Assembly (NCBI GenBank): GCA_018652595.1
Contig: JABIBU010000027.1
Span: 4,416 to 68,415 of the forward strand
DNA length: 64,000 nt
Source: Candidatus Magasanikiibacteriota bacterium
GTDB lineage: Bacteria; Patescibacteriota; Patescibacteriia; Magasanikbacterales; UBA922
Reading direction: 5' to 3'
The position numbers and the translations under genes were made by a program. Of this stretch, positions 3,313-54,640 are shown piece after piece (the first letter of the stretch is position 1; each line of letters opens with the position of its first letter). The notes under the pieces were generated by a model, which saw only the letters and a list, made by a program, of their open reading frames with translations, searched no databases and was not told where the DNA came from.

Positions 3313-3317
3313 AAGTT

Positions 3318-6322: not shown

Positions 6323-6352
6323 AAAAATCCACCTAAATAGACGGATTTTTTG
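6323..6352. terminator. Rho-independent terminator hairpin (AAAAAATCC-loop-GGATTTTTT)
   Basis: Perfect 8-bp stem flanked by A/T runs, downstream of the minus-strand EamA-like gene. Confidence 0.5.
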
Positions 6353-6380
6353 TTTTATATGCTTTCTAGGAGAAATTCAT

Positions 6381-6803: not shown

Positions 6804-6835
6804 ATACGTTTGTAGTTTAATGATTTATTAGTTTT

Positions 6836-7659: not shown

Positions 7660-7683
7660 AAAAAATTACTTAAGGATTAAAGT

Positions 7684-7709
7684 AAAAATCCCCACAAAGG
7701 GGGCTTTTA
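7684..7709. terminator. Rho-independent terminator (GCCCCC-TTTGT-GGGGAT + T run on minus strand)
   Basis: Hairpin plus a T-tract immediately downstream of the 7718..7879 small ORF. Confidence 0.45.
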
Positions 7710-7717
7710 CTTAGATT

Positions 7718-7879
7718 TTATTCTTCTTTGTCGTCTATTTCCTCCTCTGGTAAGTCGCCATCATCATCAGCTGTGCCATAACAAGCACAACAATGACCGC
7801 AGCGGCCACAACGAGTGCAGACTTCGTCTTCTAGAAGTACCGCTTCGCATTCTGAACAATAAATCATTTCTGTTTCCAT
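7718..7879 (-). CDS. Small Cys-rich peptide (53 aa, 10 Cys) with acidic DLPEEEIDDKEE tail
   Basis: Manual translation: METEMIYCSECEAVLLEDEVCTRCGRCGHCCACYGTADDDGDLPEEEIDDKEE. Below the track length cutoff. Terminator downstream. Confidence 0.45.
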   Translation of the reverse strand: METEMIYCSECEAVLLEDEVCTRCGRCGHCCACYGTADDDGDLPEEEIDDKEE

Positions 7880-7891
7880 ATTAATAGATTA

Positions 7892-8029
7892 CTAGCAAGT
7901 TTGGCAGTCACACCCACTGCATCCTTCTGTTTTTTCTTCTTTACAGTCACAGCATGCTTTACAGCATGTGCCGCCATCACAGCATTTGTTTTCGTCGTTT
8001 ATCTCGACTTCGCATTTTGTACAATTCAT
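7892..8029 (-). CDS. Small Cys-rich peptide (45 aa, 14 Cys), metallothionein-like composition
   Basis: Manual translation: MNCTKCEVEINDENKCCDGGTCCKACCDCKEEKTEGCSGCDCQTC. Lies in tandem with 7718..7879. Confidence 0.4.
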   Translation of the reverse strand: MNCTKCEVEINDENKCCDGGTCCKACCDCKEEKTEGCSGCDCQTC

Positions 8030-8055
8030 AGAAATTGTTTATTAGTTCCAGCCAC

Positions 8056-8100
8056 AGACTGCCTGCCCGCCAAATGGTCGGGGTCAGCCTTGGGCTGAAA
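8056..8100. repeat. Short intergenic repeat, family 3 (GCCCGCCAAATGGTCGGGGTCAGCCTTGGGCTGAAA)
   Basis: Near-identical 16-mer CAGCCTTGGGCTGAAA and about 25 nt of flanking similarity recur at 46307..46343. Confidence 0.55.
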
Positions 8101-8131
8101 GAATGATAAATATATTATACATTAGTAAAAT

Positions 8132-8551
8132 TTAATATTCAAGTAATACCACTTCCTCACTATCTTTTATATCAGCTAATATTGATTTTACTTCTAAGCC
8201 AGGGAATTTTGCATTTATTACTTCTTTAGCTTTGTTCATGTCGCTATTATACTTTTGTTTTTCAGTTTCCAAATTTTCAAAAGCACTATGACCACCATAT
8301 GCACCACAATCTGTGTGATGTACTAGATATAGAGTTTTTATACCATGTAATTTTACTGAGAGTTCTATTTGATTTAAGATGAATTTGGCATCAGCAGAAT
8401 CAACATCTTCGACAATAGCTTTGCTAATTCCGGCAACTGATATAACATCACAGTCATCCATAATTCCCTTTTCTTCCATCCATTTGTCTATGGCAGAAGT
8501 TAGGCGGAAGTCAATACATTTAATAAGTGCGCTTGAGCATTGGTGGGACAT
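8132..8551 (-). CDS. Beta-carbonic-anhydrase-like small zinc protein (CxDxR ... HxxC motifs)
   Basis: 139 aa. CIDFR and VHHTDCGAYGG match the beta-CA zinc ligand pattern, but the protein is shorter than canonical beta-CA. Confidence 0.4.
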   Translation of the reverse strand: MSHQCSSALIKCIDFRLTSAIDKWMEEKGIMDDCDVISVAGISKAIVEDVDSADAKFILNQIELSVKLHGIKTLYLVHHTDCGAYGGHSAFENLETEKQKYNSDMNKAKEVINAKFPGLEVKSILADIKDSEEVVLLEY

Positions 8552-8714
8552 ATAATTAGTAGAAGGTTAAAAGTAGAAAGTATAAAGATATTTTATATGA
8601 AAAATATATTTTTGTCCAACAAAAAACTACCTGCCATCAGATAGTCTTTTGTAGTTGGGGCGAGAATTATGGTGCTCGCCCGTTTCACCTTTGTTCTCGG
8701 TTGCGAGGCAAGGA

Positions 8715-8945
8715 CTACCTGTCCATGCCGGCGAGCAAGGCCTCGGCGCCGTTGGTCGTGTCGGTCCCCATCAGCCATGCCAATGACTTGTCGGGATCCT
8801 GACTTGATTCGACCGTGTTGGCGATGGCGTTGAGTTCTGCTTCTCCCTCTGTTGCACTCACTCCCGGCTGCAGGAGAGATCCCACCGGTAACGCCCCCTT
8901 CCTCTCCAGACGCTCCAGTCCGCCCATCTCACGATCCTGTGGCAT
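8715..8945 (-). CDS. Hypothetical 76-aa protein in GC-rich island A (own SD AAGGAGGG)
   Basis: ATG preceded by AAGGAGGGTATC. GC about 58% against about 35% in the host. Upstream TTGTAT-16-TAATAT promoter-like sequence. Hairpin downstream. Confidence 0.45.
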   Translation of the reverse strand: MPQDREMGGLERLERKGALPVGSLLQPGVSATEGEAELNAIANTVESSQDPDKSLAWLMGTDTTNGAEALLAGMDR

Positions 8946-9002
8946 GATACCCTCCTTGGTGTTTGGATCATCAGTTTATATGTATATATTATCATATATA
9001 TA

Positions 9003-9036
9003 AAAAAATACAACCTTTTGTGAGGTTGTATTTTAT
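9003..9036. terminator. Rho-independent terminator (AAATACAACC-loop-GGTTGTATTTT) for the antiporter gene
   Basis: Hairpin with flanking A/T tracts just downstream of the 9057 stop. Confidence 0.55.
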
Positions 9037-9056
9037 TCCATGTATATTATATCGTG

Positions 9057-10391
9057 TTAGATCGCTTCTCCCAATGGTTTAGGCTTCACACCAGTATCTT
9101 TCATAACAGCTTTTTCAAACATAATTGCACCAACTACAGTGACGAGAATTACAGCTAGAAGTGCGGCAGCGGCCATGGTTTCATCAAGTACATTATTGGA
9201 AATAGCAACTGCTACAAAGACTAATCCAACCTCACCACGAATAGCCATAGCAAGACCAACTTGATGACCTTCATGCCTGTCTTTGAATAAGTATTTTACA
9301 AGGTATTTACCAATTAAACCAAGAATAGTAAATACTATTGCCCAGGCCCAGGCTTTTGGATTCATAATAGCTTCACGAGAAAGCATAGTACCAATGCTGA
9401 CTAAAAATCCACCAACAAAGATGTGGATATACCCTTCAATCTTTTCCCATGTCTCGTGTTTAATTTCATTATCAACTTTTGATAGTACTACACCAATGCC
9501 AAATGCACCAAGAACAGGTTCCAGACCAACAACAGCGGCTAGAGTACCACCCAGCATAAGAGATCCAAAGAAGAATCTAGTATAAGGTCCGGTAGTATTG
9601 GAATAATGTTTGTCTAAATATTTTACAACTTTGTCCGCAATACCTGCGCTCCACATGGCGTAAGCACCACCAAAGAAAGCAATAACAGAAACACCAAGCC
9701 AGACAAGGCTCATAACATCAAGACCACCAGCTTCACCATGAGCACCTACGGCTCCAGCAGCGGATAATTTTGCAAGAACTGTCAAAACCAAAACACCTAA
9801 AATATCATCAATCACAGCAGCACCCACAATACGGTTTCCCATGTTGGTCTCAAGTTTGCCAGCTGCTTTCAAAGCCTCTACTGACAGACCAACTGATGTG
9901 GCAGTGAATATACCACCCAAGAAAATTGATGGTAACCACTCCAAACCAATAACATAGTGACCAAGTGCAGCAAATGATACTAAAGGAATAAGAACACCAC
10001 CAAGAGCTACAGCAGTGGCAATACCAATATTTTTCTTCAAAAGTTCTAGGTCAAAATGAAGACCAGCTTCAAACAAGATGAAAAGTACACCAGCAAGGCG
10101 AGCAATTTCTACACCACTTGCGTATGGATCAATAACTCCGATCAAAGCTGGACCAGCGATAATACCCATGACAATTTTTCCTGCCATTGGAGCAATACCA
10201 AACACTCTTGCTAAGCGTCCACCAAAAGAAGCAAACACAGCCAAGAAAGCAATGTCTAATAAAATAGGCATGATCGTGTTAATTTCGTGATGATGGCTAT
10301 GAAGTAATGCTCCGCGCAAATAGTGCAAAGCAGTTGCAGCCACAACTGTTTCTACTGCAACGAGTAGAATTGTCTTAAGTTTCTGTCCCAT
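9057..10391 (-). CDS. Cation:proton antiporter (CPA1/CPA2, Kef/NhaP-type Na+/H+ exchanger family)
   Basis: 444 aa, about 12 TM helices, Na_H_exchanger-like glycine-rich helices. Confidence 0.7.
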   Translation of the reverse strand: MGQKLKTILLVAVETVVAATALHYLRGALLHSHHHEINTIMPILLDIAFLAVFASFGGRLARVFGIAPMAGKIVMGIIAGPALIGVIDPYASGVEIARLAGVLFILFEAGLHFDLELLKKNIGIATAVALGGVLIPLVSFAALGHYVIGLEWLPSIFLGGIFTATSVGLSVEALKAAGKLETNMGNRIVGAAVIDDILGVLVLTVLAKLSAAGAVGAHGEAGGLDVMSLVWLGVSVIAFFGGAYAMWSAGIADKVVKYLDKHYSNTTGPYTRFFFGSLMLGGTLAAVVGLEPVLGAFGIGVVLSKVDNEIKHETWEKIEGYIHIFVGGFLVSIGTMLSREAIMNPKAWAWAIVFTILGLIGKYLVKYLFKDRHEGHQVGLAMAIRGEVGLVFVAVAISNNVLDETMAAAALLAVILVTVVGAIMFEKAVMKDTGVKPKPLGEAI

Positions 10392-10495
10392 ATGTATATG
10401 TGGATTATGAATTAATAGCTATGAGTTAAGAATTGAATAGCCAATATTATACTCTCGTTTTAGGGAAAAAACAAGGGTTTTTGTGGATAACATCC

Positions 10496-10526
10496 ACTAA
10501 TTCTAACACGAATCTACACGAATTTT
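10496..10526. repeat. Partial copy of family 1 repeat (AATTCTAACACGAATCTACACGAATTTTA)
   Basis: Shares the ACACGAAT / CTAAC core with copies at 1767, 11787, 22207 and 23269. Upstream of the antiporter start. Confidence 0.45.
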
Positions 10527-10563
10527 AAAGTTGTCGATTAGTGTTAAGATTGGTGGTTTATAA

Positions 10564-10636
10564 CAAAAAACTCACCAATCTCCTTGTTTATCTGCTAATT
10601 TACTTAGCAAGTAAACAAGTGCGGTGAGTTTTTTGT
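10564..10636. terminator. Long bidirectional terminator hairpin (AAAAAACTCACC...GGTGAGTTTTTT with nested stem)
   Basis: 12-bp outer stem flanked by A6/T6. Confidence 0.55.
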
Positions 10637-10679
10637 CCCTCGTTCGCAAGTGCCCTGTCTGTATTGAGGAAAAATTATG

Positions 10680-10931
10680 TCATCCATACTTGACATTGCT
10701 CACGATATCACTACAACAGGGGCCTGTGGGTCCGAATCTTACTCCGTCTATGTTTTGAGAACAATGACCCCATCTTTCACAGGGGTTAGAGAAATCCTGT
10801 GGATCGAAGTTTCGATTCTGGTTAGTCTCACCCAAAAACCACCACTTCAGAAATGTTCTGAAATCAAAACATTTCATGAGCTCTGGATATTTACCAGCGT
10901 ACCAGTTATACCTTCGTTGGTTTTCAGTCAT
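10680..10931 (-). CDS. Hypothetical 83-aa Trp/Cys-containing protein (second gene of SD-bearing two-gene cassette)
   Basis: Translationally coupled: the AAGGAGAG SD and ATGA overlap the end of the upstream gene. GC about 43%. Confidence 0.4.
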   Translation of the reverse strand: MTENQRRYNWYAGKYPELMKCFDFRTFLKWWFLGETNQNRNFDPQDFSNPCERWGHCSQNIDGVRFGPTGPCCSDIVSNVKYG

Positions 10932-11190
10932 CTTCGCTCTCCTTTTTGGATTGTTCTTTCAATCTAGCGAGTTCTTCAATTCTTTCTGCTCTCTTTTTCG
11001 GAGACATTTTTCCAGAACCGTCACAGGTATAACATTTTGTATACTCGGCCATTCTCCAGCCGCCTGTTTCATCAGTCCTCTGTCGTCCTTCTGAGGTCAT
11101 CACGATGCGCTCACCATGACAAACCATGCAGATATCACAAATTTGAATTTGTGAGCACTTTGAACATAATATTCCACGATAACACTCCAT
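10924..11190 (-). CDS. Hypothetical 88-aa zinc-ribbon protein (CxxC..CxxC plus DnaJ-type CxxCxGxG motif), first gene of cassette
   Basis: MECYRGILCSKCSQIQICDICMVC...KCYTCDGSGK. Preceded by the SD AAGGGAG. Bracketed by terminators at 10564 and 11271. Confidence 0.4.
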   Translation of the reverse strand: MECYRGILCSKCSQIQICDICMVCHGERIVMTSEGRQRTDETGGWRMAEYTKCYTCDGSGKMSPKKRAERIEELARLKEQSKKESEDD

Positions 11191-11270
11191 TGAAAACTCC
11201 CTTAGTTTACGACTTCAATAATGAAGTCAAATCGTGTTTGTAACTACTAGACTCAACCTAAGCATATCAT

Positions 11271-11301
11271 AAAAGCTCCCATCTGTCAATGAGAGCTTTT
11301 T
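11271..11301. terminator. Rho-independent terminator downstream of atpC
   Basis: AAAAGCTCCC-loop-GGAGCTTTT hairpin. Confidence 0.55.
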
Positions 11302-11318
11302 AAATGGCTTACTTAATT

Positions 11319-11747
11319 TTATTTTACATTCTTATATTTCTTCCCCACTTTAATCCTATTCATCTCCCTATCAATTACAGCTTGTAATTTTGCGAAATCA
11401 ATATTTTCTTCTGTCTTGGCTTTTTCTAATTCCTTTTCAGCACGTTTTCTAGCTTCCTCAGCTCGTTCTAGATCAATCTCTTCTGCTCTCTCAGCATTGT
11501 CAGCTAAAATTACAATTTCATTATTATCGCGCACTTCCAAAAAACCACCAGCGACGGCTAGGACATGTTCACCATCTTTGTCCGTAATCTTGATCTCACC
11601 AGCTTGTAATACAGAAACTAGTGGTATGTGATTTGGTAGAATTGTAACTTCACCAGAGGTTGTAGGGATAGAAGCTTGTTTTATTTCATCTTCGTATACA
11701 ACTTTCTCAGGTGTTGCTATCTTAAATTGTAGTATGTTGTCACTCAT
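11319..11747 (-). CDS. atpC: F1 ATP synthase epsilon subunit
   Basis: 142 aa. Last gene of the atp operon. Typical epsilon N-terminal beta-sandwich plus C-terminal helices. Confidence 0.8.
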   Translation of the reverse strand: MSDNILQFKIATPEKVVYEDEIKQASIPTTSGEVTILPNHIPLVSVLQAGEIKITDKDGEHVLAVAGGFLEVRDNNEIVILADNAERAEEIDLERAEEARKRAEKELEKAKTEENIDFAKLQAVIDREMNRIKVGKKYKNVK

Positions 11748-11786
11748 AAAAAATTAGTTCTGATTAGTTTAATCCGTTAAATCTCT

Positions 11787-11845
11787 GTATCTATAAACGT
11801 TAATAGATACACGAATTAAACTAATCTAACGAATATTAACGAATT

Positions 11846-11848
<3 letters not shown>
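11787..11848. repeat. Family 1 repeat copy between atpD and atpC (GTATCTATA-AACGTT-AATAGATACACGAATTAAACTAATCTAACGAATATTAACGAATTTT)
   Basis: Tight hairpin GTATCTATA/TAGATAC plus the conserved core. Abuts the atpD stop codon. Confidence 0.65.
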
Positions 11849-13219
<1,371 letters not shown>

Positions 13220-18607: not shown

Positions 18608-19439
18608 ATATAATTTTCGTAAATAACCTCTTTGCATTTTCAACTGTAACATCTCTAACTTCTTCTTCTGTAAGTACTTTTATCTCCGCAATTTTCTTGG
18701 CAACTTCCTCTACCATCCACGGCTCGCAACGCTCTCCACGATATTTTTGTGGAGCTAGGTATGGTGCATCAGTTTCAATCAGTATTCTGTCCAATGGGCA
18801 GTTTTTTATTACCTCTAAGAGCTGTTCTTGAGGTTTTGGGCTGGTTTTCTTGGCTGGGAAGGTCGCAATACCAGTAAAACCCAAATAAAGTCCTAAATCA
18901 AGGAATTTTTGAGCATTTTGCCAGTTTCCAGTATAACAGTGCACTACACCTTTTGTTTCCGGATCCAGTACTTCAAGTATTTCCTTATAAGCATCTCTCA
19001 CATGAATAACAAGGGGTAGATTATGCTTTTTGGCAAAATCGGCTTGCTTTATAAAAATTTCTTTTTGTTTTTTCAATACTTCTTCCAAGCTTTTATCTTT
19101 TGGTAAGTGAAATAAATCTATGCCACACTCCCCCACTGCGATTACTTTTTCTGACTTAGCAAGTTCACCATAATATTCCTCATCAAAATCTTCTTCGCGT
19201 GAAATAAAGCTAGACTCTTCTTCATCTACATGCGTTGGAAAAAGATGAATAGGATGCAAACCAATCGTCGCATAAATATTATCATACTTCTCAGCAAAAT
19301 CTACTGCTTTTTTACTAGTCTCTTTTTGTGTGCCAACAGTATTTAATATAGTATTTTTTTCAATACAACGCTTGATTACTTCATCATAATCATCTTTGTA
19401 AGCATTGAATTGGATATGACAGTGGGAGTCTATTAACAT
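18606..19439 (-). CDS. tatD: TatD-family metal-dependent DNase/hydrolase
   Basis: 277 aa. MLIDSHCHIQF… His-rich TIM-barrel motifs. Confidence 0.85.
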   Translation of the reverse strand: MLIDSHCHIQFNAYKDDYDEVIKRCIEKNTILNTVGTQKETSKKAVDFAEKYDNIYATIGLHPIHLFPTHVDEEESSFISREEDFDEEYYGELAKSEKVIAVGECGIDLFHLPKDKSLEEVLKKQKEIFIKQADFAKKHNLPLVIHVRDAYKEILEVLDPETKGVVHCYTGNWQNAQKFLDLGLYLGFTGIATFPAKKTSPKPQEQLLEVIKNCPLDRILIETDAPYLAPQKYRGERCEPWMVEEVAKKIAEIKVLTEEEVRDVTVENAKRLFTKII

Positions 19440-19530: not shown

Positions 19531-19974
19531 ATGCGTATTCGAGAATGGATTGAGAGACATGCAACCTCAGCATGGCACGAGGATGTTTGGGAAAATCCCA
19601 CCAAGATGGGCTTATACGTGCACCTGCGCTGGTGTGTGTTCGAGCCGGGAATGGCCCACATCAAGGAAGGGTCTGTGATTCTCATGGTTGTGGTCGAACC
19701 GGGTGGAGCGATTACACGCTACACACACGAGAACCGCAACAGCTGCAACTTCGCCATGGCTTGGCTGGAACGAAAGCTGGCAAGGCAGTTTGGCAACTGG
19801 GATCACGACAACGGTATGCCCAAAAGAGTTCAGCTGATGGCGGCCAGGAAGGAGGAGCAGCACATTCCTGTGACCTTCCTGATCATGAAGAAGGGGCGCG
19901 ATCTGATTCCCAGTGTTAGCTATCCAAACAGACCAGACCACCCGGAGGACAGAATCGCCAATCTCGTCATCTAG
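19531..19974 (+). CDS. Hypothetical 147-aa protein, GC-rich island B
   Basis: GC about 55%. Strong SD. Own promoter and terminator. No recognisable family. Confidence 0.5.
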   Translation: MRIREWIERHATSAWHEDVWENPTKMGLYVHLRWCVFEPGMAHIKEGSVILMVVVEPGGAITRYTHENRNSCNFAMAWLERKLARQFGNWDHDNGMPKRVQLMAARKEEQHIPVTFLIMKKGRDLIPSVSYPNRPDHPEDRIANLVI

Positions 19975-31137: not shown

Positions 31138-31884
31138 ATGAAAGGCGCTCTTTACGTTCTGTGTCTGTGCTGGTTCCTTCTGGGTTGTACTGAGAATGAT
31201 CTGGTGACAGACCCTGAAGAGATTGGTGTCGCCACGGACGCCACCCCGGAAGAAAAAGATGTCGTGGAGTCCACCGACCTGAAAGAGACGGACATCGAAG
31301 GCGACGCCTACACAGGCGAGGTTGTGCCCATCTCATACCCCACCTGCGGGGATTGCGACGATGAGAACGCCTGCACTGTGGGATGGTGTTCTGACCCCAA
31401 GCAGAACCTGTGTTCATACGAACCAGTCTACTGCGACGATGAGAACGAAGAGACCGATGACTGGTGCCATCAGATTGATGGGTGCATCTACTGGTCGCAG
31501 ACCTGTGTCCAGGATGTCCACTACGAGCTCTGGACTGACATGGTCTCGGGACCCAAGATCAAGGACACAATCTTGGATGTGAGCCTGGGGTGCTGTAACA
31601 GTGACCTGGATTGCAAGGGCTCACCTTGGGGCGAATACTGCGTCGAGTGGAAACCGCCTATGGTGGGGTTTGGTCTCAAACCCGAAGAAGACGATAACCA
31701 GTACGCATGGCTCTGTCACGAATGCGAGGACAACTGCGACTGTCCTTTCGGGCAGGAGTGTGTACTCGCAATGCAAAATCTCCTCACCCAAGAGGAGCTG
31801 GATTGCTACCACGAGGAGCTCGAACAAGACTTCCTCGGAGCACCACGACGGCCTGTCTTGCGCTGTCAGGATCCAGGAGGATAG
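31138..31884 (+). CDS. Secreted Cys-rich acidic lipoprotein with myxo-type cysteine-rich repeats (CxDxDxNxCTxxxC), GC-rich island C
   Basis: Signal/lipobox MKGALYVLCLCWFLLGCTEN. Repeats CGDCDDENACTVGWCSDP and YCDDENEETDDWCHQIDGC. SD GGGAGGG. GC about 56%. Upstream TTGACA promoter-like sequence. Confidence 0.55.
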   Translation: MKGALYVLCLCWFLLGCTENDLVTDPEEIGVATDATPEEKDVVESTDLKETDIEGDAYTGEVVPISYPTCGDCDDENACTVGWCSDPKQNLCSYEPVYCDDENEETDDWCHQIDGCIYWSQTCVQDVHYELWTDMVSGPKIKDTILDVSLGCCNSDLDCKGSPWGEYCVEWKPPMVGFGLKPEEDDNQYAWLCHECEDNCDCPFGQECVLAMQNLLTQEELDCYHEELEQDFLGAPRRPVLRCQDPGG

Positions 31885-31973
31885 ACATCGATCCTTCTAA
31901 AACATATTGGGCCACCCCCGTCGGGGGTGGTTGGAGAAGAACGTGGGCGAACAACACTGTTCGTCCACCACAC

Positions 31974-32003
31974 AAAAAACACCTATGAAGGTGTTTTTTG
32001 TTA
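31974..32003. terminator. Bidirectional rho-independent terminator (AAAAAACACC-TATGAA-GGTGTTTTTTG)
   Basis: Perfect hairpin between island C and the uvrC stop. Confidence 0.6.
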
Positions 32004-43650: not shown

Positions 43651-43688
43651 ATTGCCACGTCATGTATTCTCATTCCTCGCAATGACAC
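43651..43688. repeat. Family 2 repeat copy (ATTGCCACGTCATGTATTCTCATTCCTCGCAATGACAC), inverted relative to the copy at 46460
   Basis: Its reverse complement aligns with GTCATTGCGAGGAGTGTGTAACAACGACGTGGCAATCCC. Confidence 0.6.
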
Positions 43689-44262: not shown

Positions 44263-44293
44263 AAAAAAACTTCCATATCTGGAAGTTTTTTAT
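44263..44293. terminator. Bidirectional terminator (AAAAAACTTCC-ATATCT-GGAAGTTTTTT)
   Basis: Perfect hairpin after greA. Confidence 0.6.
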
Positions 44294-44490
44294 TTCGGCT
44301 TTGTATTGGTCTTCCACATGCGGTTTCCTATGCTTCTTTGTCTTTGGGCACCGGCTTGGCTGCTTGCTTTTGCGTGGAAGCCCTGGAGACTGCTTTGTTT
44401 TTTCTTTGGGAGACTCATAGAAGGAAGCTTAGTCCCCTTGCCCAACTTCTTTTCTTCTTTTTTTAAATTTTTTAGGACTTTTGATAGCAT
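44290..44490 (-). CDS. Small Lys-rich basic protein, unknown
   Basis: 66 aa, pI very high. Possibly a nucleic-acid binding or ribosome-associated protein. May not be real. Confidence 0.3.
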   Translation of the reverse strand: MLSKVLKNLKKEEKKLGKGTKLPSMSLPKKKQSSLQGFHAKASSQAGAQRQRSIGNRMWKTNTKPK

Positions 44491-44500
44491 ATTATTTTAT

Positions 44501-46288
44501 TTACTTCTTCCTACCAGCTCTAACTCTATCAGTCTCAGTCAATTGCTGTTTTCGTAGGCGGATACTCTTTGGGGTGATCTCTAGGTACTCGTCTTCAGAC
44601 ATTACTTCCATTCCCCTTTCCAGCGTGAGATCCATAGGCGGGATGAGCGCGAGGGCATCGTCAGTACCAGAAGCACGCATATTGGTAAGTTGTTTGCCTT
44701 TTATTGGATTGACTGTCATATCTTGACCTTTGGCAGTATTACCAATGACCTGACCTTCGTAAACTTCCACATTTGCTTTTACATAAAGCACACCACGCTC
44801 TTGGAGATTGGCTAGTGCGTAACCAAGCACCTTGCCAGCTACACCAGAAATCATAGAACCAACGTCGCGTTTTTTGATCTCGCCAGCTACTGGTTTGAAG
44901 CCAATAACTTCGCTACACAAGATTCCTTCGCCACGAGTATCAACTGTAAATTCATTTTTATAACCTAGTAAGCCTCTGGTTGGGATTTCATAAACCACAC
45001 GAGTGTGATTTTGCTCAGGTTGCATAGATATCATCTGTCCTTTTCGTTTTGACATCTTTTCAATTACTGTTCCAGCAAATTCTTCTGGAATATCCAAGGT
45101 AACAAGCTCATATGGTTCGGACTTAACACCGTCCACTTCTTTTATAATAACTTGAGGTTGAGAAACTTGAAGTTCATAATTTTCACGGCGCATGTTTTCT
45201 AGTAAAATTGCAATATGAAGTTCGCCTCTGCCATAGACTTTGAAAAAATCATTATTTTCAAATTCAATTTTTAGCCCTACATTTACTTCCAATTCTTTTT
45301 CTAGTCTTCCTTTGATTTGTTGAGTCGTTACAAACTTTCCTTCTTTTCCAGCATAAGGAGAATTGTTTACAAGGAAATTCAATGAGATTGTTGGCTCGTC
45401 AATTTTAATTGCAGGAAGTAGTTCTTGATTTTCATCTATACAAATAGTGTCGCCAATATATATTTCTGGCAGACCAGATATCATTACAATATCACCTGCA
45501 CCAGCTTCGTCTACTTCTTTTCTATTTATTCCCTCAAAGGTAAATAGTTTTGCGATAGTTCCGGTTGTTGTCTTCTCACCGATTTTTTTTATAAAAACTT
45601 TTTGACCTGCTTTTACTTTTCCTTGATAGATTCTACCAATACCAAGACGGCCGAGATAATTATCATAAGCTAGGTTGAATGGTTGAAAAGAAAATGAAGC
45701 TTCGGTATCAGCCTCGGCTGGTGAAACTTTTTCTAGAATAACATCCAAAAGCGGAGTAAGATTGTCTGACTCGTCTTCTAGATTCATTTTTGCAATCCCC
45801 TCTTTTGCAATAGTATAAACTGTAGTGAAATCAAGTTGCTCATCATTGGCACCTAGATCCATGAAAAGTTCTAGTACCTTGTCATTGGCCCAGTCTGGTC
45901 TAGCTGCTGGCTTGTCGATTTTATTTAGAACTACAATAGGCTTGAGGCCTAGCTCTAGAGATTTTTTTAAAACAAATTTGGTCTGAGGCATTGGCCCTTC
46001 TTGGGCATCTACAATTAGAAGCACAGAATCAATGGAACGAAGAACTCGCTCTACTTCTGAACCAAAATCAGCATGACCTGGTGTGTCTACTATGTTTATT
46101 TTTGTATCTTTATAGAATACTGAAGTGTTTTTGGAATAAATAGTAATACCACGCTCTTTTTCAAGATCGTTTGAATCCATACTCACTTTTTCATCTGTCA
46201 CCATTCCAGTCTGACGCATAAGAGCATCAGTCAGCTTGGTCTTGCCGTGATCTACGTGAGCTATGATTGCTATGTTACGAGTTTCCAT
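44501..46288 (-). CDS. typA: Translational GTPase TypA/BipA
   Basis: 595 aa. AHVDHGKTKLTDALM G1 motif. EF-G-like domains. Confidence 0.9.
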   Translation of the reverse strand: METRNIAIIAHVDHGKTKLTDALMRQTGMVTDEKVSMDSNDLEKERGITIYSKNTSVFYKDTKINIVDTPGHADFGSEVERVLRSIDSVLLIVDAQEGPMPQTKFVLKKSLELGLKPIVVLNKIDKPAARPDWANDKVLELFMDLGANDEQLDFTTVYTIAKEGIAKMNLEDESDNLTPLLDVILEKVSPAEADTEASFSFQPFNLAYDNYLGRLGIGRIYQGKVKAGQKVFIKKIGEKTTTGTIAKLFTFEGINRKEVDEAGAGDIVMISGLPEIYIGDTICIDENQELLPAIKIDEPTISLNFLVNNSPYAGKEGKFVTTQQIKGRLEKELEVNVGLKIEFENNDFFKVYGRGELHIAILLENMRRENYELQVSQPQVIIKEVDGVKSEPYELVTLDIPEEFAGTVIEKMSKRKGQMISMQPEQNHTRVVYEIPTRGLLGYKNEFTVDTRGEGILCSEVIGFKPVAGEIKKRDVGSMISGVAGKVLGYALANLQERGVLYVKANVEVYEGQVIGNTAKGQDMTVNPIKGKQLTNMRASGTDDALALIPPMDLTLERGMEVMSEDEYLEITPKSIRLRKQQLTETDRVRAGRKK

Positions 46289-46380: not shown

Positions 46381-46459
46381 AATAACAAAATTCTCCTGGT
46401 AGGAGAATCTACTGTGACGGGATTATACTATAGTTTTGGGGTTTTGTCAACCCCCCCAT

Positions 46460-46498
46460 GTCATTGCGAGGAGTGTGTAACAACGACGTGGCAATCCC
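46460..46498. repeat. Family 2 repeat copy GTCATTGCGAGGAGTGTGTAACAACGACGTGGCAATCCC (partner arm CTCGCAATGAC at 46573..46583)
   Basis: 11-bp perfect inverted repeat GTCATTGCGAG/CTCGCAATGAC about 100 bp apart. Confidence 0.6.
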
Positions 46499-46592
46499 AT
46501 ACTTAAAAACCACTGTCAGTGCAATAAAGACTGAAATTGCCGCGCAACAAGTCCTCTTTGAGAGACTTATCGCTCGCAATGACAGTATAAAC

Positions 46593-46617
46593 AAAAAAAT
46601 ACCTTTTTAAGGTATAT
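46593..46617 (-). terminator. Rho-independent terminator for island D minus-strand gene (ATACC-TTAAAAA-GGTAT + U7)
   Basis: On the minus strand, ATATACCTTAAAAAGGTATTTTTTTG. Preceded by a GC-rich palindrome GTGTCGAACGGGCGGGGCGGTCGACAC. Confidence 0.5.
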
Positions 46618-46708
46618 AGTGTGTCGACCGCCCCGCCCGTTCGACACCGTTCTGGTAGTCTAGGCGGGGGGCCTCTGATTGTATGCGAAGTTCGCATGAC
46701 TTCCTCCC

Positions 46709-47245
46709 TTAGGTTCTGTTGCTTGGGTGCTCTGGACACCACTTCGCCTCGCAATTCTCGCAATCCACGTCCACATCTATCACAGTGGCAACAATTATGC
46801 CACGGCGACCAAGACCGACCGTGTCATCGAAAGTAACCTCCTCTCTTGTCTCGATAGTAACCCTTTTCGTGAAGATGAACCAGAAGGTACTCACGAACAA
46901 GGTAATCGTCAGCATCCAGGACAGGAGGCACCCAGGACAAACCATCCCAACTTCAACTGCCCTCATAACCAGGAAGACGGTGAATCCGCCCGCGAAGGTG
47001 ACGAGGATGTAGTTGAAGATTGGAAAGAGCCCCCACTTGCTTCTGCTGGACCTGGCCATAAGGGCCGTGAGCCCAATCGTCAGGTACCCCACAGCCCCTA
47101 TCAGAGCGAAGGGCACTCCCAACAGCAGGGTATCAGCGACGTCCTTAGCATGTCCCAGAGCACAGATGTGTGCCCCACCAGCCACGAGGATGCCGATGAA
47201 ACCAAGTGCCGCGATGACAGAGAAATAGAATCTGTGCAAATCCAT
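46709..47245 (-). CDS. Hypothetical 4-TM membrane protein with C-terminal CENCEAKWC motif, GC-rich island D
   Basis: Start MDLHRF preceded by GAGGGGGGG. The track ORF starts 5 codons earlier. GC about 57%. Confidence 0.5.
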   Translation of the reverse strand: MDLHRFYFSVIAALGFIGILVAGGAHICALGHAKDVADTLLLGVPFALIGAVGYLTIGLTALMARSSRSKWGLFPIFNYILVTFAGGFTVFLVMRAVEVGMVCPGCLLSWMLTITLFVSTFWFIFTKRVTIETREEVTFDDTVGLGRRGIIVATVIDVDVDCENCEAKWCPEHPSNRT

Positions 47246-47285
47246 GGAACCCCCCCTCAAGGTTTTCTAAGTTGTTGAACAAAGT

Positions 47286-47314
47286 TTTTATACCATAAAA
47301 TAAAAGGTTTGTCA
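47286..47314 (-). promoter_or_regulatory. Consensus sigma70 promoter TTGACA-17-TATAAA (minus strand) for 46709..47245
   Basis: Plus-strand TTTATA at 47286-47291 and TGTCAA at 47309-47314. Confidence 0.5.
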
Positions 47315-47391
47315 AGTATAGTAACAAAAAACACCCTATAGAATAATGTTTTTTTGACTAGACCCAACTATTCCACATTACAGTAAGGGAC

Positions 47392-47420
47392 TTGACAAAA
47401 GTGCTAAAATGTGCTATAAT
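47392..47420 (+). promoter_or_regulatory. Perfect consensus sigma70 promoter TTGACA-17-TATAAT (plus strand) with about 210-nt structured leader before 47637
   Basis: TTGACA 47392-47397, TATAAT 47415-47420. The leader contains the hairpin CTTGCTGGT…ACCAGCAAG. Confidence 0.55.
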
Positions 47421-47636
47421 ATATCGTCATAATCCAAAAATTAAGTCTAGTAAATAGCTTGTATTTTAAGGGGTTATAACGAGGTTCGTTTCAATCTAAA
47501 CCCACCAAAAGGAGTCTTGCTGGTGAAATATGTTTATTACCTACATAGGTGTGAGTATATTTGACCAGCAAGGCGTGCCTAATTAAGCGCCCTGCTATTA
47601 CGCGGTGACGTAGCCGCATTATACAGGAGAAGAGAA

Positions 47637-48221
47637 ATGGCTGACAACAAGAACGTCTTTACCTGCAGTGTGACCTGGGAAAACATCTGTAAGCTTTCGC
47701 TGCTCATGACCAACGGTCTCAAGGATGAGGAAGCCAACCAGGAACTGGTGTACATGGCGGATAACTCCTTCGGGTCTCGTGAGTGGGATGCAATGGAAAG
47801 TGCCCACCGCGTGGACAACGGCTGTGATGGGGACTGGATCGGCTTCCAAGAAGCAAGCTCATCCCGATTCCTCTGGGGCTCGGCCTCATCCGGGGCCACC
47901 ATCGAAGTCGTGAAGTATCACGAGTTCTGGGAGTTAACATTCACGGGTACGAACGTCACAGAGACTGGCAGAGAATCCTGGTATGCTACCGCGGCCGCAA
48001 TGGTAGTGAACCCCCGGGACATTCAGGAAATTGATTTCCCCGAGACTGTGGCATTCTTGGACACGGTACGAGTGTCGGAAAATGACGTGTGGGTCTCCGA
48101 TGAAGAGAAGCTCATACGCGCCAACTTCCTCGAGGGTTTCGAAGGGATCTTCTATATCAATGCACCGCTTACCGAAGCAGAGCAAATCGAAGCTGACTTC
48201 GACTCCGGTCGTCTAAGCTAG
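47637..48221 (+). CDS. Hypothetical 194-aa acidic soluble protein, island D
   Basis: SD AGGAGAAG. GC about 56%. No recognisable family. Confidence 0.5.
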   Translation: MADNKNVFTCSVTWENICKLSLLMTNGLKDEEANQELVYMADNSFGSREWDAMESAHRVDNGCDGDWIGFQEASSSRFLWGSASSGATIEVVKYHEFWELTFTGTNVTETGRESWYATAAAMVVNPRDIQEIDFPETVAFLDTVRVSENDVWVSDEEKLIRANFLEGFEGIFYINAPLTEAEQIEADFDSGRLS

Positions 48222-48467
48222 TGATCCTTCTCCACACCCCGCTCTTTCAACGTCGCATCTAGCTACTGGCGTGATGCGAAAGGCCTGATCTATCAGGTCA
48301 ACTACTACTGGTACGCGTTCCAAACACAGGAACGCCACACCTTCATCCCCGAAGGTTGCCAGTGTACTCGAAACGCACGCTCGACTCCCCGTCGACGTGC
48401 CTTCAACTATCTTACTCTTGGACTTTTCAAGGGTGAAATTGAGAAGAAAATACAATTTGAGACAAAA

Positions 48468-48497
48468 TAAAAAACCGTGAATTATCACGGTTTTTTT
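48468..48497. terminator. Bidirectional terminator (AAAAAACCGTGA-ATTAT-CACGGTTTTTTT)
   Basis: Perfect 8-bp stem between island D and the DEAD-box helicase stop. Confidence 0.6.
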
Positions 48498-48507
48498 AAT
48501 TTATATT

Positions 48508-49884
48508 TTATCTACTATATCTACGTCGAGGTGAATTGGTTGGGCGACTCTGTCCGGAACTAGAATTACTTCGTTGACCGTCTGAGGATTCGCTTCTTTT
48601 TCGGGAGTATGGTTTGTTTCTACTACCACTTCCACCACTTCTTTTTCCTCTACTATTCTTTTGGCCGTGTCTTGGGTTGTATGCTCCACCCTGACCTTGT
48701 CGAGGAGATCTACCTCCAGCTTGGAATCCTCGTTTTATAACTGGTCTTTCTCTTTCTGGTGGAAGTTTTGGAAGAGTTAGTATTGGTAAACTCTTGCGAA
48801 TTAGTCGTTCAATCTTTCTGACATCTGCCTTTTCTGATGGAGTAACAAATGAAATTGCTTTTCCAGATTTACCAGCACGACCAGTTCTACCAATACGGTG
48901 AACATAGTCCTCTAAACCATCTGGAAGATCGAAATTGATAACTAGATTAATATCTTTTACATCAATACCACGAGCAGCAATATCAGTAGCGACCATTACA
49001 CGAAATCTTCCTTTGGTAAATCCGTCCAATGCTTTTACGCGTTGTGCTTGAGAACGATTACCATGAATCTCTGTTGCAGTATGATTCATGTTGCCTATAT
49101 CACGAGCAATACGCTTGGCACCATGTTTGGTTCTAGAAAAAACAAGGACCTTGTCGTCTTTATATTGTTCAAGAATTGCATCGAGTAGACGCATCTTATC
49201 ATTTTTCCTTACGACAAATACTTCTTGATCAGTATTTTCTGCAGAAGTTCCTTGAGGTGCGATTTCAATTCGCAAAGGTAGCTTCATAAATCTAGTTGCG
49301 AGACTTGAAATAGTCTTTGGCATGGTAGCAGAGAATAACATTGTTTGTCTATCTGGTCTTATTGCTGATAAAATCTTTTTTATCTCTGGCAAAAATCCCA
49401 TATCAAGCATACGATCGCCTTCATCCAGAGTAATTATATTTACATTTTTCAAACTATAAGCACGTTGGTCTATCAAGTCCATAAGACGGCCGGGAGTAGC
49501 AATTACAATATGTGGATTGCGCTGTAGAGCTCTGACTTGAGGATGTTGAGAAACACCACCAATTACTACTGCTGTGGTCATTCTAAGAGGTGTGCCAACG
49601 TTTTTCAATGATTCCTCCACTTGGAGTGCTAGCTCACGTGTAGGGACCAGAATAAGGCCCTGACCCTTGTCTTTTGCTAGACGTTGGATCATTGGTATAC
49701 CAAAAGCTAGAGTCTTGCCAGTACCAGTCTGAGCAATACCCACGATGTCTTTTCCTTCCAATGCAGGTGCTATGACCTGGCGCTGGATAGGTGTAGGAGT
49801 TTCAAACCCCTTCTTTGAGAGGATGGTCAAAAAATTTGACGCTATCCCAAGGTCGCTAAAACGACCTGTATCTTCTTTTTGCAT
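48508..49884 (-). CDS. DEAD-box ATP-dependent RNA helicase with Arg/Gly/Ser-rich C-terminal tail
   Basis: Q motif, GTGKT, DEAD (LDEGDRM variant region), SAT, HRIGRTGR. Confidence 0.85.
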   Translation of the reverse strand: MQKEDTGRFSDLGIASNFLTILSKKGFETPTPIQRQVIAPALEGKDIVGIAQTGTGKTLAFGIPMIQRLAKDKGQGLILVPTRELALQVEESLKNVGTPLRMTTAVVIGGVSQHPQVRALQRNPHIVIATPGRLMDLIDQRAYSLKNVNIITLDEGDRMLDMGFLPEIKKILSAIRPDRQTMLFSATMPKTISSLATRFMKLPLRIEIAPQGTSAENTDQEVFVVRKNDKMRLLDAILEQYKDDKVLVFSRTKHGAKRIARDIGNMNHTATEIHGNRSQAQRVKALDGFTKGRFRVMVATDIAARGIDVKDINLVINFDLPDGLEDYVHRIGRTGRAGKSGKAISFVTPSEKADVRKIERLIRKSLPILTLPKLPPERERPVIKRGFQAGGRSPRQGQGGAYNPRHGQKNSRGKRSGGSGSRNKPYSRKRSESSDGQRSNSSSGQSRPTNSPRRRYSR

Positions 49885-50945: not shown

Positions 50946-50974
50946 TTGACATTCTTTTTTATTTCTGTTATAAT
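50946..50974 (+). promoter_or_regulatory. Perfect consensus sigma70 promoter TTGACA-17-TATAAT driving tRNA-Asn
   Basis: TTGACA 50946-50951, TATAAT 50969-50974, about 25 nt upstream of the tRNA 5' end. Confidence 0.6.
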
Positions 50975-50999
50975 GTTCTCGTTGTTTACAACTAAACAT

Positions 51000-51385
51000 T
51001 CGACGGTAGCTCAGTGGTAGAGCAACTGGCTGTGACTTTAATAGCAGCCCTTGGTAGTAATACTGAGGTGAAAAACAAGGTGAACTGCAGGAACCCTTAA
51101 TCTGTTGCAAAACAGAAAAGGCGATCTGCAGCCAAGTCTTGACCCCTAATCCATATCCGGATTAATATTACGGACTTACTAAGACTGTAGTAGGGAGTCA
51201 AGAAAGGTTCAGAGACTATCCTTAACGGGAGTAGGATTCGATTTAATCGGATTCGAAGCGCCTTGCACCCCAACGCTCTTGATTTAGTCAAGTTTTTGGC
51301 GAGGGTGATAATATAGTCCACTCTTTTAGGAAACTAGAAGGCAAGTGTAACCAGTGGGTCGCCGGTTCGAGCCCGGCCCGTCGAG
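51000..51385 (+). tRNA. tRNA-Asn(GUU) interrupted by a group I intron in the anticodon loop (exons 51000..51033 and 51348..51385)
   Basis: Acceptor TCGACGG/CCGTCGA, D arm GCTC-AGTGGTA-GAGC, anticodon stem ACTGG/CCAGT, spliced loop CUGUUAA, variable loop GGGTC, T arm GCCGG-TTCGAGC-CCGGC, discriminator G. Confidence 0.75.
51034..51347 (+). other. Group I self-splicing intron (314 nt, no ORF) inserted between anticodon positions 35 and 36
   Basis: P1: exon GGCUGU pairs with the intron IGS GCAGCC (U.G at the splice site). P4 elements: CUGCAGG / UCUGCAG. R element GUUCAGAGACUA. S element AAUAUAGUCC. Terminal omega-G. Confidence 0.75.
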
Positions 51386-51391
51386 CAAAAC

Positions 51392-52804: not shown

Positions 52805-54559
52805 CTATTGAAAGATTCTTAGAATATATTCTTGAATGAACATGCTGTTCGAGGCCAAGTAATTGGCAAGTCCCCAAACAGCCCAAGGAACAAGTAACCA
52901 CTTCCACAAGTTCTGCTTTTTGGTGGAGATGAAACCACCAAGCAGTACGAGAAGTGGGTCTGCGATTAGACGGTTGGACCAGTGCTCAAATCCGCGTTTC
53001 CAGTCGGAAATTGCGATTCCGAACACCCCAGACTCCATCAAAAATTCGGCCAACTCCCAACTATAAGCGATCGCGAAGATCACAAGTAGGAGTTTCTTGA
53101 TATTGGAGTTTGGGAATACCTTCCTAAGGAGCGGATACATCACCACACCCAAAAGAAAGTGTTCTATTGACCACAGATCGAGCATGGCAACCTCTCTCGC
53201 TCCATACTTCTGTGGCACCACCATACAGATCAACGCCAGCCCCATGACTGTGTCGATGAGCAGGATGATCTTCTTTGGGTTGCTCGTCGGATCCCACTTG
53301 ACGAACTTGTAAACAAGCAAGGCAAGCACTACTAGCACTTCGTCTGCCTTGCGTGTGAGGTAGAGGAAGAATCCTGAAACACTGGCAGTAACCAGTGAGA
53401 TTCGCTTCGCATTTTCTACACCAAGCGCCACAGCCAACGTGTGCTTGTATCCCCTGTCGACCTTGACATCGTCGATGTCCTTGACGATCTCTCTCCACAG
53501 AACTATAAGGAAGAATACTCTGTACCAGATCCAAACACGATGATCACTGGTCCTAAGGTAGACTGAGCCACAGAGCACTGGGCTGGCGCCACAGACTGCG
53601 ACGATCAGGTTGTTGAGCACGATGATATTTTCCAGGTAGGAGTATATCAAGCCCGTGAGTAGGACGGCCAGACACAAGACTCCCAAGTAGAGGTCGTAAA
53701 ACATCAACGCACCTATCAGCACAAGAGTCACTACGGTCAGCTTGACCCAGTAACCCCAAAATGCTTTTGGGTAGTCGAATGCCAGACGTTTTCCCTTCTG
53801 GAGATCATGGCTTCTATCGTACCAGTCATTGAAGGTCATAATGCTCATGTGAAGCAAAGAGCAGGACAAGGCAGCCAGTAAGGCAATACCCCAATCTACC
53901 TGAATCTCTTCGTACATCACAAAACCGCCGAGTGTAAACAGGAAAGTGAAGAGAGTACCTCTAATCCTTCCTGTCTTGACCAACTCCACGAGTGGTGGAG
54001 CAGATGTCTCGAGGGCATCCTTGTAGCCCAGTAACGTATCTTCCACTACTGCGGCTATGTAGATTGACCAGCCGGCAATGGTTAAGAAAAGTACTTGCCC
54101 ATTCATATCACCTTTCAAGATATGGAACAGACAGATTGCCGTGGTGGCAACCCCAAACCCAAAGTAAGGCAGATGGACTATACCACCCAAGCTGATCTTG
54201 CCAGTCTTTGGAAATCCCCAGTTTGGCTTGTAGCTGGGACCAGTCCCAACCCTATACCAAAACCAGGCACCCAAACAGATCGACAGCGCGAACACTACCC
54301 ACCCGAGTGTGCTGACGTGGCCGTTCTGGACCAGGTGACCAAAACCGCAAAACACTAAGCCCATGCCAATGACATCTCCCCATGTCTGGCAATTGGCGTC
54401 CTGCCAATGGTTGAATTTCTGACTCGTGCCAGAAATAGGGCTCCGTCTCGCTGGAATTCTCCCCTGACTCAATTCCCACTGCTGAGTGAAAAATTGAGAC
54501 AAACAGATCAATCCATTAAGAAGGAGAACGATAAGAATGGTGCTGTAGTCTACTGCCAT
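52805..54559 (-). CDS. UbiA-superfamily prenyltransferase embedded in a large polytopic membrane protein (about 584 aa), GC-rich island E
   Basis: First Asp-rich motif FNDWYDRSHDLQKGKR, second motif DIDDVKVDRGYKHT. SD AAGGAGG. GC about 52%. Upstream TTGTAA-17-TATTAT. Confidence 0.6.
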   Translation of the reverse strand: MAVDYSTILIVLLLNGLICLSQFFTQQWELSQGRIPARRSPISGTSQKFNHWQDANCQTWGDVIGMGLVFCGFGHLVQNGHVSTLGWVVFALSICLGAWFWYRVGTGPSYKPNWGFPKTGKISLGGIVHLPYFGFGVATTAICLFHILKGDMNGQVLFLTIAGWSIYIAAVVEDTLLGYKDALETSAPPLVELVKTGRIRGTLFTFLFTLGGFVMYEEIQVDWGIALLAALSCSLLHMSIMTFNDWYDRSHDLQKGKRLAFDYPKAFWGYWVKLTVVTLVLIGALMFYDLYLGVLCLAVLLTGLIYSYLENIIVLNNLIVAVCGASPVLCGSVYLRTSDHRVWIWYRVFFLIVLWREIVKDIDDVKVDRGYKHTLAVALGVENAKRISLVTASVSGFFLYLTRKADEVLVVLALLVYKFVKWDPTSNPKKIILLIDTVMGLALICMVVPQKYGAREVAMLDLWSIEHFLLGVVMYPLLRKVFPNSNIKKLLLVIFAIAYSWELAEFLMESGVFGIAISDWKRGFEHWSNRLIADPLLVLLGGFISTKKQNLWKWLLVPWAVWGLANYLASNSMFIQEYILRIFQ

Positions 54560-54640
54560 CACGACCTCCTTCTATGTTGGTTGATTTTCAAGGTACATTA
54601 AAAATAATAGCATTTTTGAATGTTTTTTACAAGATTATAC

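Follow-up and report, generated by a model that had tools for sequence, protein, structure and literature searches.

In ermC-type leaders, competing RNA segments serve as translational attenuators, and 3' retroregulator hairpins are known from highly expressed genes such as the Bacillus thuringiensis cry genes. In the VKOR family, a loop cysteine pair between helices 1 and 2 shuttles electrons. To our knowledge, the regulatory RNAs of Patescibacteria are almost unexplored. The idea that GC-rich intergenic regions mark structured RNAs is older than the search strategy that now builds on it. That strategy takes such regions as marks of structured RNAs in AT-rich genomes (PMC8632094), and genomic islands are common in Patescibacteria (PMC12455944). 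Here, we describe a GC-richer islet of 1.9 kb (46.6-48.5 kb) in a 64,000-nucleotide (nt) stretch of DNA from a Candidatus Magasanikiibacteriota bacterium (GenBank assembly GCA_018652595.1, contig JABIBU010000027.1, positions 4,416 to 68,415 of the forward strand), hereafter called the window. The islet contains two divergent genes, A and B. Our preferred reading, to which we assign a probability of about one half, is that these are two single-gene units, in which gene B lies within a family-specific conserved RNA frame consisting of a leader and a stable 3' domain, and gene A encodes a VKOR-like protein.

Two divergent genes in a small islet

The window has a GC content of about 36% and carries most of its genes on the minus strand. 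The islet is bordered by typA/bipA (44501-46288) and a DEAD-box helicase gene (48508-49884). Both of its coding sequences have a GC content of 53.6%, rather than the approximately 56% given for the two proteins by an earlier reading made from the letters alone (the sequence-only reading). As the islet region was recovered from independent ENA, NCBI, JGI and Logan assemblies, misassembly is ruled out; across 20.6 kb, the ENA contig and the window are 99.995% identical. A sister lineage (L001-L003, from ENA, JGI and Logan assemblies) has the same chromosomal site with a different gene content: in L001, a gene of 275 amino acids (aa) lies between A and B, and two more GC-rich orphans lie beside A. 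No repeat copies of the untranslated regions (UTRs) of the islet were found elsewhere within the window.

Gene B (47637-48221, +; 194 aa) has a promoter at 47392-47420 (+) that fits the consensus TTGACA-17-TATAAT at 12 of 12 positions and carries a TG extension (TTGACAAAAG...TG-TATAAT). Gene A (46709-47245, -; 178 aa from the ATG) has a promoter at 47314-47286 (-), TTGACA-17-TATAAA, which was found by reading the sequence and which the promoter scanner passed over solely because TATAAA ends in A. The 5' UTR and promoter of gene A occupy 47246-47320 (-) and include the Shine-Dalgarno (SD) sequence GAGGGGGGG in front of the start codon. Downstream of gene A is an AT-rich intrinsic terminator (46593-46616, -; ATACCTT-AAA-AAGGTAT, then a U-run), unlisted by the scanner because its stem has fewer than three G-C pairs; the same hairpin is found in L001. 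Gene B and the helicase gene, which converge from the plus and minus strands, share a bidirectional intrinsic terminator with a 12-bp stem and U-runs on both strands (48469-48496). The two back-to-back promoters, both open reading frames (ORFs), the leader hairpin and both terminators named in the sequence-only reading are thus all present. Its description of the locus as a two-gene cassette does not fit these divergent monocistronic units, each with its own promoter, UTRs and terminator. Judged from its sequence signals, the locus is best described as two apparently independent single-gene transcription units in a small variable islet, not as an operon.

The sequence-only reading had also listed the two consensus promoters among the features of the cassette. 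Three promoters with 12 of 12 matches occur between 40 and 60 kb, namely those of gene B, typA and a tRNA gene, and the helicase gene promoter has 11 of 12. Perfect consensus promoters are ordinary in this genome and are the norm for its housekeeping genes. The extended -35 element TTGACAAAA is likewise the local norm. The extended -35 of the B promoter also precedes the B homologues in L005, L007 and L009; the L008 contig starts inside the leader, so the TTGACAAAAG promoter is not visible there.

A block of about 90 nt, consisting of a promoter and 5' UTR (TTGACAAA-N17-TATAAA, then ...CAACAACTTAGAAAACC...GGAGG), occurs at 47236-47365 (-) in the window and at 7302-7440, 8662-8800 and 7860-7990 (-) in L001. 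It lies upstream of three GC-rich genes, the VKOR-like gene in both genomes and an unrelated 135-aa gene of L001, and a 115-aa gene has a looser version of it. The same putative expression signals are, on this sequence comparison, joined to unrelated reading frames.

Like the genomic islands described in Patescibacteria (PMC12455944), the islet has an atypical composition, a gene content that varies between sister lineages, and B homologues elsewhere that lie next to tRNA genes. It differs from them in being tiny and without a mobility gene, and in that its non-coding frame is kept whereas its genes have diverged; a transferred block would show the reverse.

A conserved structured leader precedes gene B

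In the arrangement that we propose, a host-type consensus promoter would drive gene B and yield a transcript with a leader of about 210 nt, the coding frame, a 3' RNA domain right after the stop codon, and the terminator. The leader (47427-47636, +) folds with a z-score of -5.5. It begins with a 5' hairpin (47429-47477, +), followed by a long hairpin, P1 (47514-47574, +; GTCTTGCTGGT...ACCAGCAAG(GC)), a second helix, P2, in which 47568-47575 pairs with 47588-47595 (+; GCRAGRC...GYCYYGC), and a third, P3 (47602-47617, +; GCRG-YKANGUAG-CYGC), followed by the SD sequence (AGGAG, 47625-47629); across the B loci, P3 lies about 10-20 nt upstream of the SD sequence. P1 and P2 are mutually exclusive, as they use a common strand, GCAAG.

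This architecture is common to the B loci of L001, L005, L007, L008 and L009, and in four of these five the 3' strand of a long P1 doubles as the 5' strand of P2. In an alignment of six sequences from about four lineages, 97.4% of the cells in P2 and P3 were paired and three pairs showed compensatory changes, a score reached by none of 500 shuffles; slid controls were 22-55% paired. A three-way covariation could be read directly from the sequences: the P1 5' strand, the shared strand and the P2 3' strand have U/A/U in the window and L001, and C/G/C in L007 and L009. A change of the shared strand from A to G, accompanied by U to C in both of its partners, is as predicted for a genuine two-state element. 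A covariance model of P2 and P3 (R1) gave one match per B locus, at 58-79 bits, and nothing above 12 bits elsewhere in the 64-kb window.

The leader appears to be particular to the B family. It had no match in Rfam 15 (expectation value (E) up to 10 for the window islet and up to 1 for the homologous loci), so that the check for a known leader family came back empty. A degenerate version of the leader pattern, searched across genome contigs, gave chance matches in GC-rich genomes only (L012-L130, which are noise), the exact pattern in metagenome contigs returned only the L007 contig again, and two scans of viral sequences for the leader found nothing. The fold, the P2/P3 covariation and the specificity of R1 to B loci bear out the earlier suggestion that the long structured leader is a regulatory element; on this comparative evidence, it is in all probability a conserved, structured and family-specific regulatory RNA.

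The closest described systems are three-segment translational attenuators and riboswitch platforms of the ermC type. As in these, a second segment (GCAAGGC) can pair with either the first (P1) or the third (P2), all of which covary, and the element lies directly upstream of the SD sequence. The B leader differs in having no Rfam match, in that sequestration of its SD sequence is not above chance, and in that the short ORFs within P1 vary in frame. The alternative pairing of P1 and P2 would act as a switch that sets the translation or the stability of the B mRNA. One such short ORF (MFITYIGVSIFDQQGVPN) lies at 47530-47586 (+), inside P1 after GGTGAAAT, and ends in the P2 loop. A leader peptide was considered and rejected, as the short ORFs in P1 differ in frame and length among the window, L001, L007 and L009.

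The region after gene B resembles a structured RNA rather than a decayed gene

Between the stop codon of gene B and the shared terminator lies a 3' domain of about 225 nt (48222-48447, +), which is predicted to form a multi-helix junction closed by pairing of CUUCUC (48227-48232) with GAGAAG (48441-48446). The minimum free energy of 48219-48500 is -99.3 kcal/mol, against -59.9 ± 4.3 for shuffled sequences (z = -9.3). Without the terminator, the z-score is still -8.0 in the window and -9.2 in L001, and the minus strand reaches only -3.7. Of the 14 positions at which the two genomes differ in this domain, 13 show transitions and four lie in stems, where G-U wobble preserves every affected pair on the plus strand. 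The sequence-only reading had proposed that 48222-48460 may be a decayed third gene. This region is instead the best-conserved and most structured part of the locus, it has no conserved reading frame, and five of its six frames contain stop codons in both genomes. From its folding and conservation, 48222-48447 is probably a structured RNA and not a decayed gene.

Another coding explanation is that the conservation stems from a real small gene, a 91-aa minus-strand ORF at 48213-48488 that is the single open frame of the region in the window and L001. Within this frame, 2 codon changes are synonymous and 10 nonsynonymous. The two genomes do not have the same start codon for it, and that of the window falls within the terminator; it is situated downstream of the helicase terminator without a promoter of its own, and the plus strand folds far better. 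We consider such a gene extremely improbable.

GC-rich intergenic regions offer a parallel (PMC8632094), as the 3' domain combines a high GC content with structure and a lack of coding capacity, within a genome of about 36% GC. Here, the adjoining coding sequences are also GC-rich, through their third positions, and therefore composition alone cannot separate RNA from gene. A more general lesson may be that GC-rich DNA beside an orphan gene in an AT-rich genome, which is easily taken for a dead gene, should first be considered as RNA.

The 3' domain had no match in Rfam, including the ribozyme models (E up to 10 for the islet and up to 0.05 for the whole window). Structure is likewise predicted for the 3' regions of L007, L008, L009 and L134 (z = -2.5 to -5.0; the short L005 region has z = -1.35), and those of L007, L008 and L009 end like that of the window, with a hairpin, a purine-rich GAGGA-type motif and a terminator. 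In L134, a type III hammerhead (1574-1629, +) with a complete core (CUGAUGAG...CGAAAC) is located 50 nt downstream of the B stop codon and is flanked by tandem leader copies at 752-844 and 1700-1792. It scored 44.9 bits (E = 3.8e-8), which is 3.6 bits under the Rfam gathering score of 48.5. The L134 homologue thus resembles hammerhead type III (RF00008) systems, from which the 3' domain of the window differs in matching no known ribozyme model. As the hammerhead occupies the same place, RNA end formation or processing is suggested by analogy as a common function of the region after the B reading frame, and the L134 hammerhead is a concrete reason to consider catalysis or processing in the 3' domain of the window.

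The B transcript may also be compared with elements that protect mRNA ends, such as 5' stem-loops, 3' retroregulators and small RNAs derived from 3' UTRs, as it has a 5'-terminal hairpin and a large stable structure between stop codon and terminator. The 3' domain differs from a simple protective hairpin in its far greater size, about 225 nt with six or more helices, and in its stronger conservation. One role that we propose for it and the 5' hairpin is to define and protect the ends of the B mRNA; alternatively, the 3' domain would be released as a stable RNA.

The latter possibility leads to a different view, in which the 3' region is a stand-alone functional RNA; it would then either represent a new kind of self-cleaving or processing RNA or, co-transcribed with B, serve that protein as its RNA partner in a ribonucleoprotein. 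The extreme stability and conservation of the domain, the hammerhead at the equivalent position of L134 and the structured 3' regions of other homologues would all fit. We nevertheless regard it as unlikely: no known ribozyme model matches in the window, the promoter scan detected no promoter belonging to the 3' region, the strong acidity of protein B would be unusual in an RNA-binding protein, and the 3' element cannot be aligned across the B family.

The RNA frame is better conserved than the reading frame that it encloses

When the window is compared with L001, identity is 97% in the B promoter, 87.5% in the leader, 61% in the B coding sequence and 93.8% in 48222-48447. On the other side of the islet, the 5' UTR and the promoter of gene A are each 85% identical and its coding sequence 62.5%. 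Identity falls, and then recovers, at the start and stop codons. By these values, conservation is far higher in the presumed RNA frame than in the reading frame within it. For B, the rate of nonsynonymous substitution (dN) is 0.35, the synonymous rate (dS) is saturated and not computable, and identity at the three codon positions is 0.70/0.76/0.36. The corresponding dS is 2.4 for the VKOR-like gene, 0.63 for typA and 0.61 for the helicase gene. These patterns indicate that A and B are true genes under purifying selection, and that their reading frames are, as judged from these substitution rates, several-fold more diverged than the neutral background of the two genomes, whereas their UTRs appear less diverged than that background. 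Diverged coding alleles between near-identical flanks would result from allele replacement by recombination in the conserved UTRs, which would fit a B protein under diversifying selection.

The divergence is accompanied by an unusual composition. Codon usage in the window is bimodal: five of the 49 tabulated long ORFs have a GC content at third codon positions (GC3) of 0.60-0.67, the other 44 have 0.17-0.34, and none falls in between. The five are 19531-19974, 31138-31884, gene A, gene B and 52805-54562, with 0.65-0.67 for genes A and B (0.65 for A). Four L001 islet genes that were measured have a GC3 of 0.53-0.55. In L007, the B gene reaches 0.94 compared with 0.36 in its neighbour, with a sharp change at the start and stop codons, and it is flanked by AT-rich UTRs that are homologous to those of the window. 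Candidate explanations for a GC enrichment that is limited to coding sequence are repeated import of alleles, biased gene conversion at a recombination hotspot, or codon selection. Two other ideas were discarded. The B coding sequence is not GC-rich in order to fold, as its folding energy equals that of shuffles (z = -0.12), and the tRNA genes adjacent to B homologues are ordinary ones (Leu-UAA, Asp-GUC, Trp-CCA) rather than decoders of G/C-ending codons.

The simplest competing account is plain horizontal acquisition, in which GC-richer foreign genes entered a hotspot and acquired duplicated copies of host promoters and terminators. The conserved flanks would then be no more than promoters, terminators and residual DNA, with the 3' region as the decaying remnant of a gene. 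This account is in keeping with the five GC3-rich genes that stand apart from 44 ordinary ones, with B homologues in GC-rich hosts (L011, L132, L133 and L135) and beside tRNA genes, with the promoter and 5' UTR block that is common to unrelated GC-rich ORFs, and with the abundance of genomic islands in Patescibacteria (PMC12455944). However, a remnant would not exceed typA in conservation (93.8% versus about 86.6-86.7% at the nucleotide level), nor would it fold at z = -9, and the 3' region has no conserved reading frame. Further arguments against it are the covariation of the leader hairpins between lineages and their restriction to B loci, as well as the L007 gene, whose GC3 of 0.94, bounded sharply by codons between homologous AT-rich UTRs, is not what simple transfer followed by amelioration predicts. 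Plain acquisition therefore seems to us rather unlikely.

A number of observations weigh against our preferred reading of gene B within a conserved RNA frame. The duplex energies for sequestration of the SD sequence by the P2 3' strand and for pairing of a GUUCUUU motif with the start region, both of which we rejected, were no better than those of shuffled or random controls. In distant homologues, the interior of the 3' domain could not be aligned to that of the window, so that homology of this element across the B family is conjectural. The RNA evidence comes from about five lineages, and the 3' domain is covered by two close sequences only, between which no fully compensatory double change was found. 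With two lineages, recombination and local hypermutation are indistinguishable, and the high identity of the UTRs could stem partly from recent exchange instead of constraint. Finally, GC3 is uniform within the tabulated GC3-rich genes of each genome (about 0.60-0.67 here and about 0.53-0.55 in L001), which fits in-place evolution better than random import of alleles.

A more far-reaching proposal is that the leader and 3' domain together form an undescribed RNA frame of the patescibacterial B family, that the 3' domain is a new class of large RNA with a processing or self-cleaving role or a role as partner of B, and that GC3-rich alleles are exchanged inside this frame or are kept GC-rich by a force limited to coding sequence. 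We put this forward as a speculation with a small chance of being correct as a whole. If the RNA frame is functional, the RNAs of the Patescibacteria would be extended by a leader motif and a large structured RNA, both new and both tied to a confidently modelled family of orphan proteins. The pattern itself is unusual, with flanks that are 88-97% identical, reading frames past synonymous saturation and a rise in GC bounded by codons, and it is relevant to the way in which accessory genes are maintained and renewed in the reduced genomes of symbionts.

The remaining GC3-rich ORFs of the window encode a 147-aa orphan, a 248-aa Cys-rich orphan that looks secreted and a 585-aa protein of the UbiA family (52805-54562). 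In the 3' UTR of the Cys-rich ORF (31885-31995), GATCCTTCT stands right after the stop codon and GGAGAAGAA before the terminator, and these motifs resemble the closing helix of the B 3' domain (GATCCTTCTCC...GAGAAGAA). The promoter spacer of this ORF, TTGACAAAAACTGCTAAATATGGTGTTATATAA, is also B-like.

A VKOR-like membrane protein and an acidic orphan

The sequence-only reading had found no nameable family for either protein. Gene A matches Pfam VKOR (PF07884) at 31.1 bits, above the cut-off of 27.5 (E = 2.9e-7), although the match spans only model positions 49-133 of 134. Its four predicted helices (residues 3-31, 36-66, 74-98 and 104-132) come from a single-sequence model of low confidence (predicted local distance difference test (pLDDT) 57). 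The earlier description as a membrane protein of 178 aa with four helices holds, except that the motif quoted as its end lies near the end and not at it (the protein ends ...DCENCEAKWCPEHPSNRT). A CPGC motif at residues 103-106 opens helix 4 and is CPAC in L001, as seen in a two-sequence alignment. Upstream of this CxxC there is one conserved cysteine only, C28 in HxCALxH, and the C-terminus carries a Cys3His tail, DCxxC...CPxH, that is conserved with L001. Gene A thus resembles the VKOR family of membrane thiol oxidoreductases, which act in disulfide-bond formation, in its score over the cut-off, its four helices and the CxxC that opens the last of them. It departs from that family in its partial match, in having a single cysteine in place of the loop pair, which was not found here, and in the added tail in which its extra cysteines sit. 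No solved structure was matched by its sequence. The product is 99% identical to HOA57_00560 of Ca. Magasanikbacteria at NCBI. Taken together, these features point weakly to a homologue of VKOR-like membrane thiol oxidoreductases, not a proven VKOR. The 3' UTR of gene A (46618-46708, -) is conserved and structured, with a fold z-score of -4.2 and a core that is about 93% identical to L001 in an alignment read by eye.

Protein B is soluble and acidic, with an isoelectric point of 4.15 and a net charge of -23, and is 99% identical to HOA57_00565 at NCBI. Its family is rare and unannotated, with 42 cluster representatives in 1.84 billion. The AlphaFold model has a pLDDT of 94 and gave no significant fold match among solved or viral structures. 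Searches of 38 B-family members against PADLOC and Pfam found no match, which upholds the earlier view that B belongs to no named family; PHROGs gave a single weak match, in one of the 38. A tblastn search of B against phage and plasmid collections found no match either.

Genes A and B are unlikely to form a functional pair

The sequence-only reading had interpreted the divergent promoters, the membrane protein and its cytosolic partner as a functional two-gene module of the toxin/immunity, sensor/effector or small defence type, and had named in advance the conservation of the pair as its test. The pair did not hold up, as, outside the window, A and B occur as neighbours in the sister lineage alone, where the 275-aa gene, of ordinary composition (GC3 0.19), splits them. 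The neighbours of B elsewhere are diverse. They are small ORFs and genes for a serine recombinase, a reverse transcriptase, and OLD-like and HNH proteins in L007; DUF6938, a Fic/RhuM gene and tRNA-Trp in L009; tRNA-Leu in L005; tRNA-Asp in L008; a second, tandem leader copy in L134; and lipoprotein-like genes and a Y1 transposase gene in L135. No VKOR gene is listed near B in L007, L009, L011 or L135, and there is no VKOR neighbour within the short contigs L005, L008 and L134.

Some features do favour a module. In the window, A and B are adjacent and divergent, they share a chromosomal site with their counterparts in the sister lineage, both evolve fast (dN about 0.35, with dS saturated for B and 2.4 for A), and B is strongly acidic, like many immunity and anti-defence proteins. 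The L007 homologue, moreover, stands amid OLD-like, HNH, recombinase and reverse transcriptase genes. These features have to be set against the inserted gene of L001, the missing VKOR-like neighbours, the separate promoters, UTRs and terminators of A and B, and the empty PADLOC, Pfam and tblastn searches with B. With no PADLOC or Pfam match among the 38 family members and gene A VKOR-like, a module of any of the three types is very unlikely, and we retain the description as two single-gene units.

The L007 contig (Ca. Magasanikbacteria, GCA_041665025.1) holds, at 1-12579, a block with an OLD-like ATPase, a MazG-like protein, an HNH protein, a large serine recombinase and the B homologue. Non-coding DNA of about 580 nt precedes the gene for its reverse transcriptase, which has 311 aa. 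The block as a whole resembles a mobile or defence island.

Other features of the window

On the plus strand at 50993-51388, a tRNA gene is split in its anticodon loop by a group I intron at 51024-51340 (Rfam Intron_gpI, 78 bits). The exons are TCGACGGTAGCTCAGTGGTAGAGCAACTGGCTGTGA...CCAGTGGGTCGCCGGTTCGAGCCCGGCCCGTCGAGCA, and positions 50946-50974 form a perfect consensus promoter. In L001, the region recurs in inverted orientation with 87.6% identity. ARAGORN reported no tRNA over the whole window.

For typA, the segment 46388-46450 (-) includes a perfect consensus promoter (46450-46422). The typA leader, of about 130 nt, contains a conserved hairpin, AGATTCTCCTACCAGGAGAATTT, with a terminator-like score and the same sequence in L001, and this element may attenuate typA. 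A 126-nt element (46459-46584) with perfect 12-nt inverted repeats at its ends (TGTCATTGCGAG / CTCGCAATGACA) separates the typA promoter from the terminator of the VKOR-like gene. Its sequence suggests a miniature inverted-repeat element. L001 lacks it at this site, and further copies of its end sequence are found at 43675-43686 (-) and, in L001, at about 19214-19264. Lastly, 44288-44502 is 96.7% identical to positions 910-1124 of L001, which are at a different place there, compared with 86.6% for the adjoining typA. This segment holds a lysine-rich minus-strand ORF of 66 aa that is called as a gene in L001.

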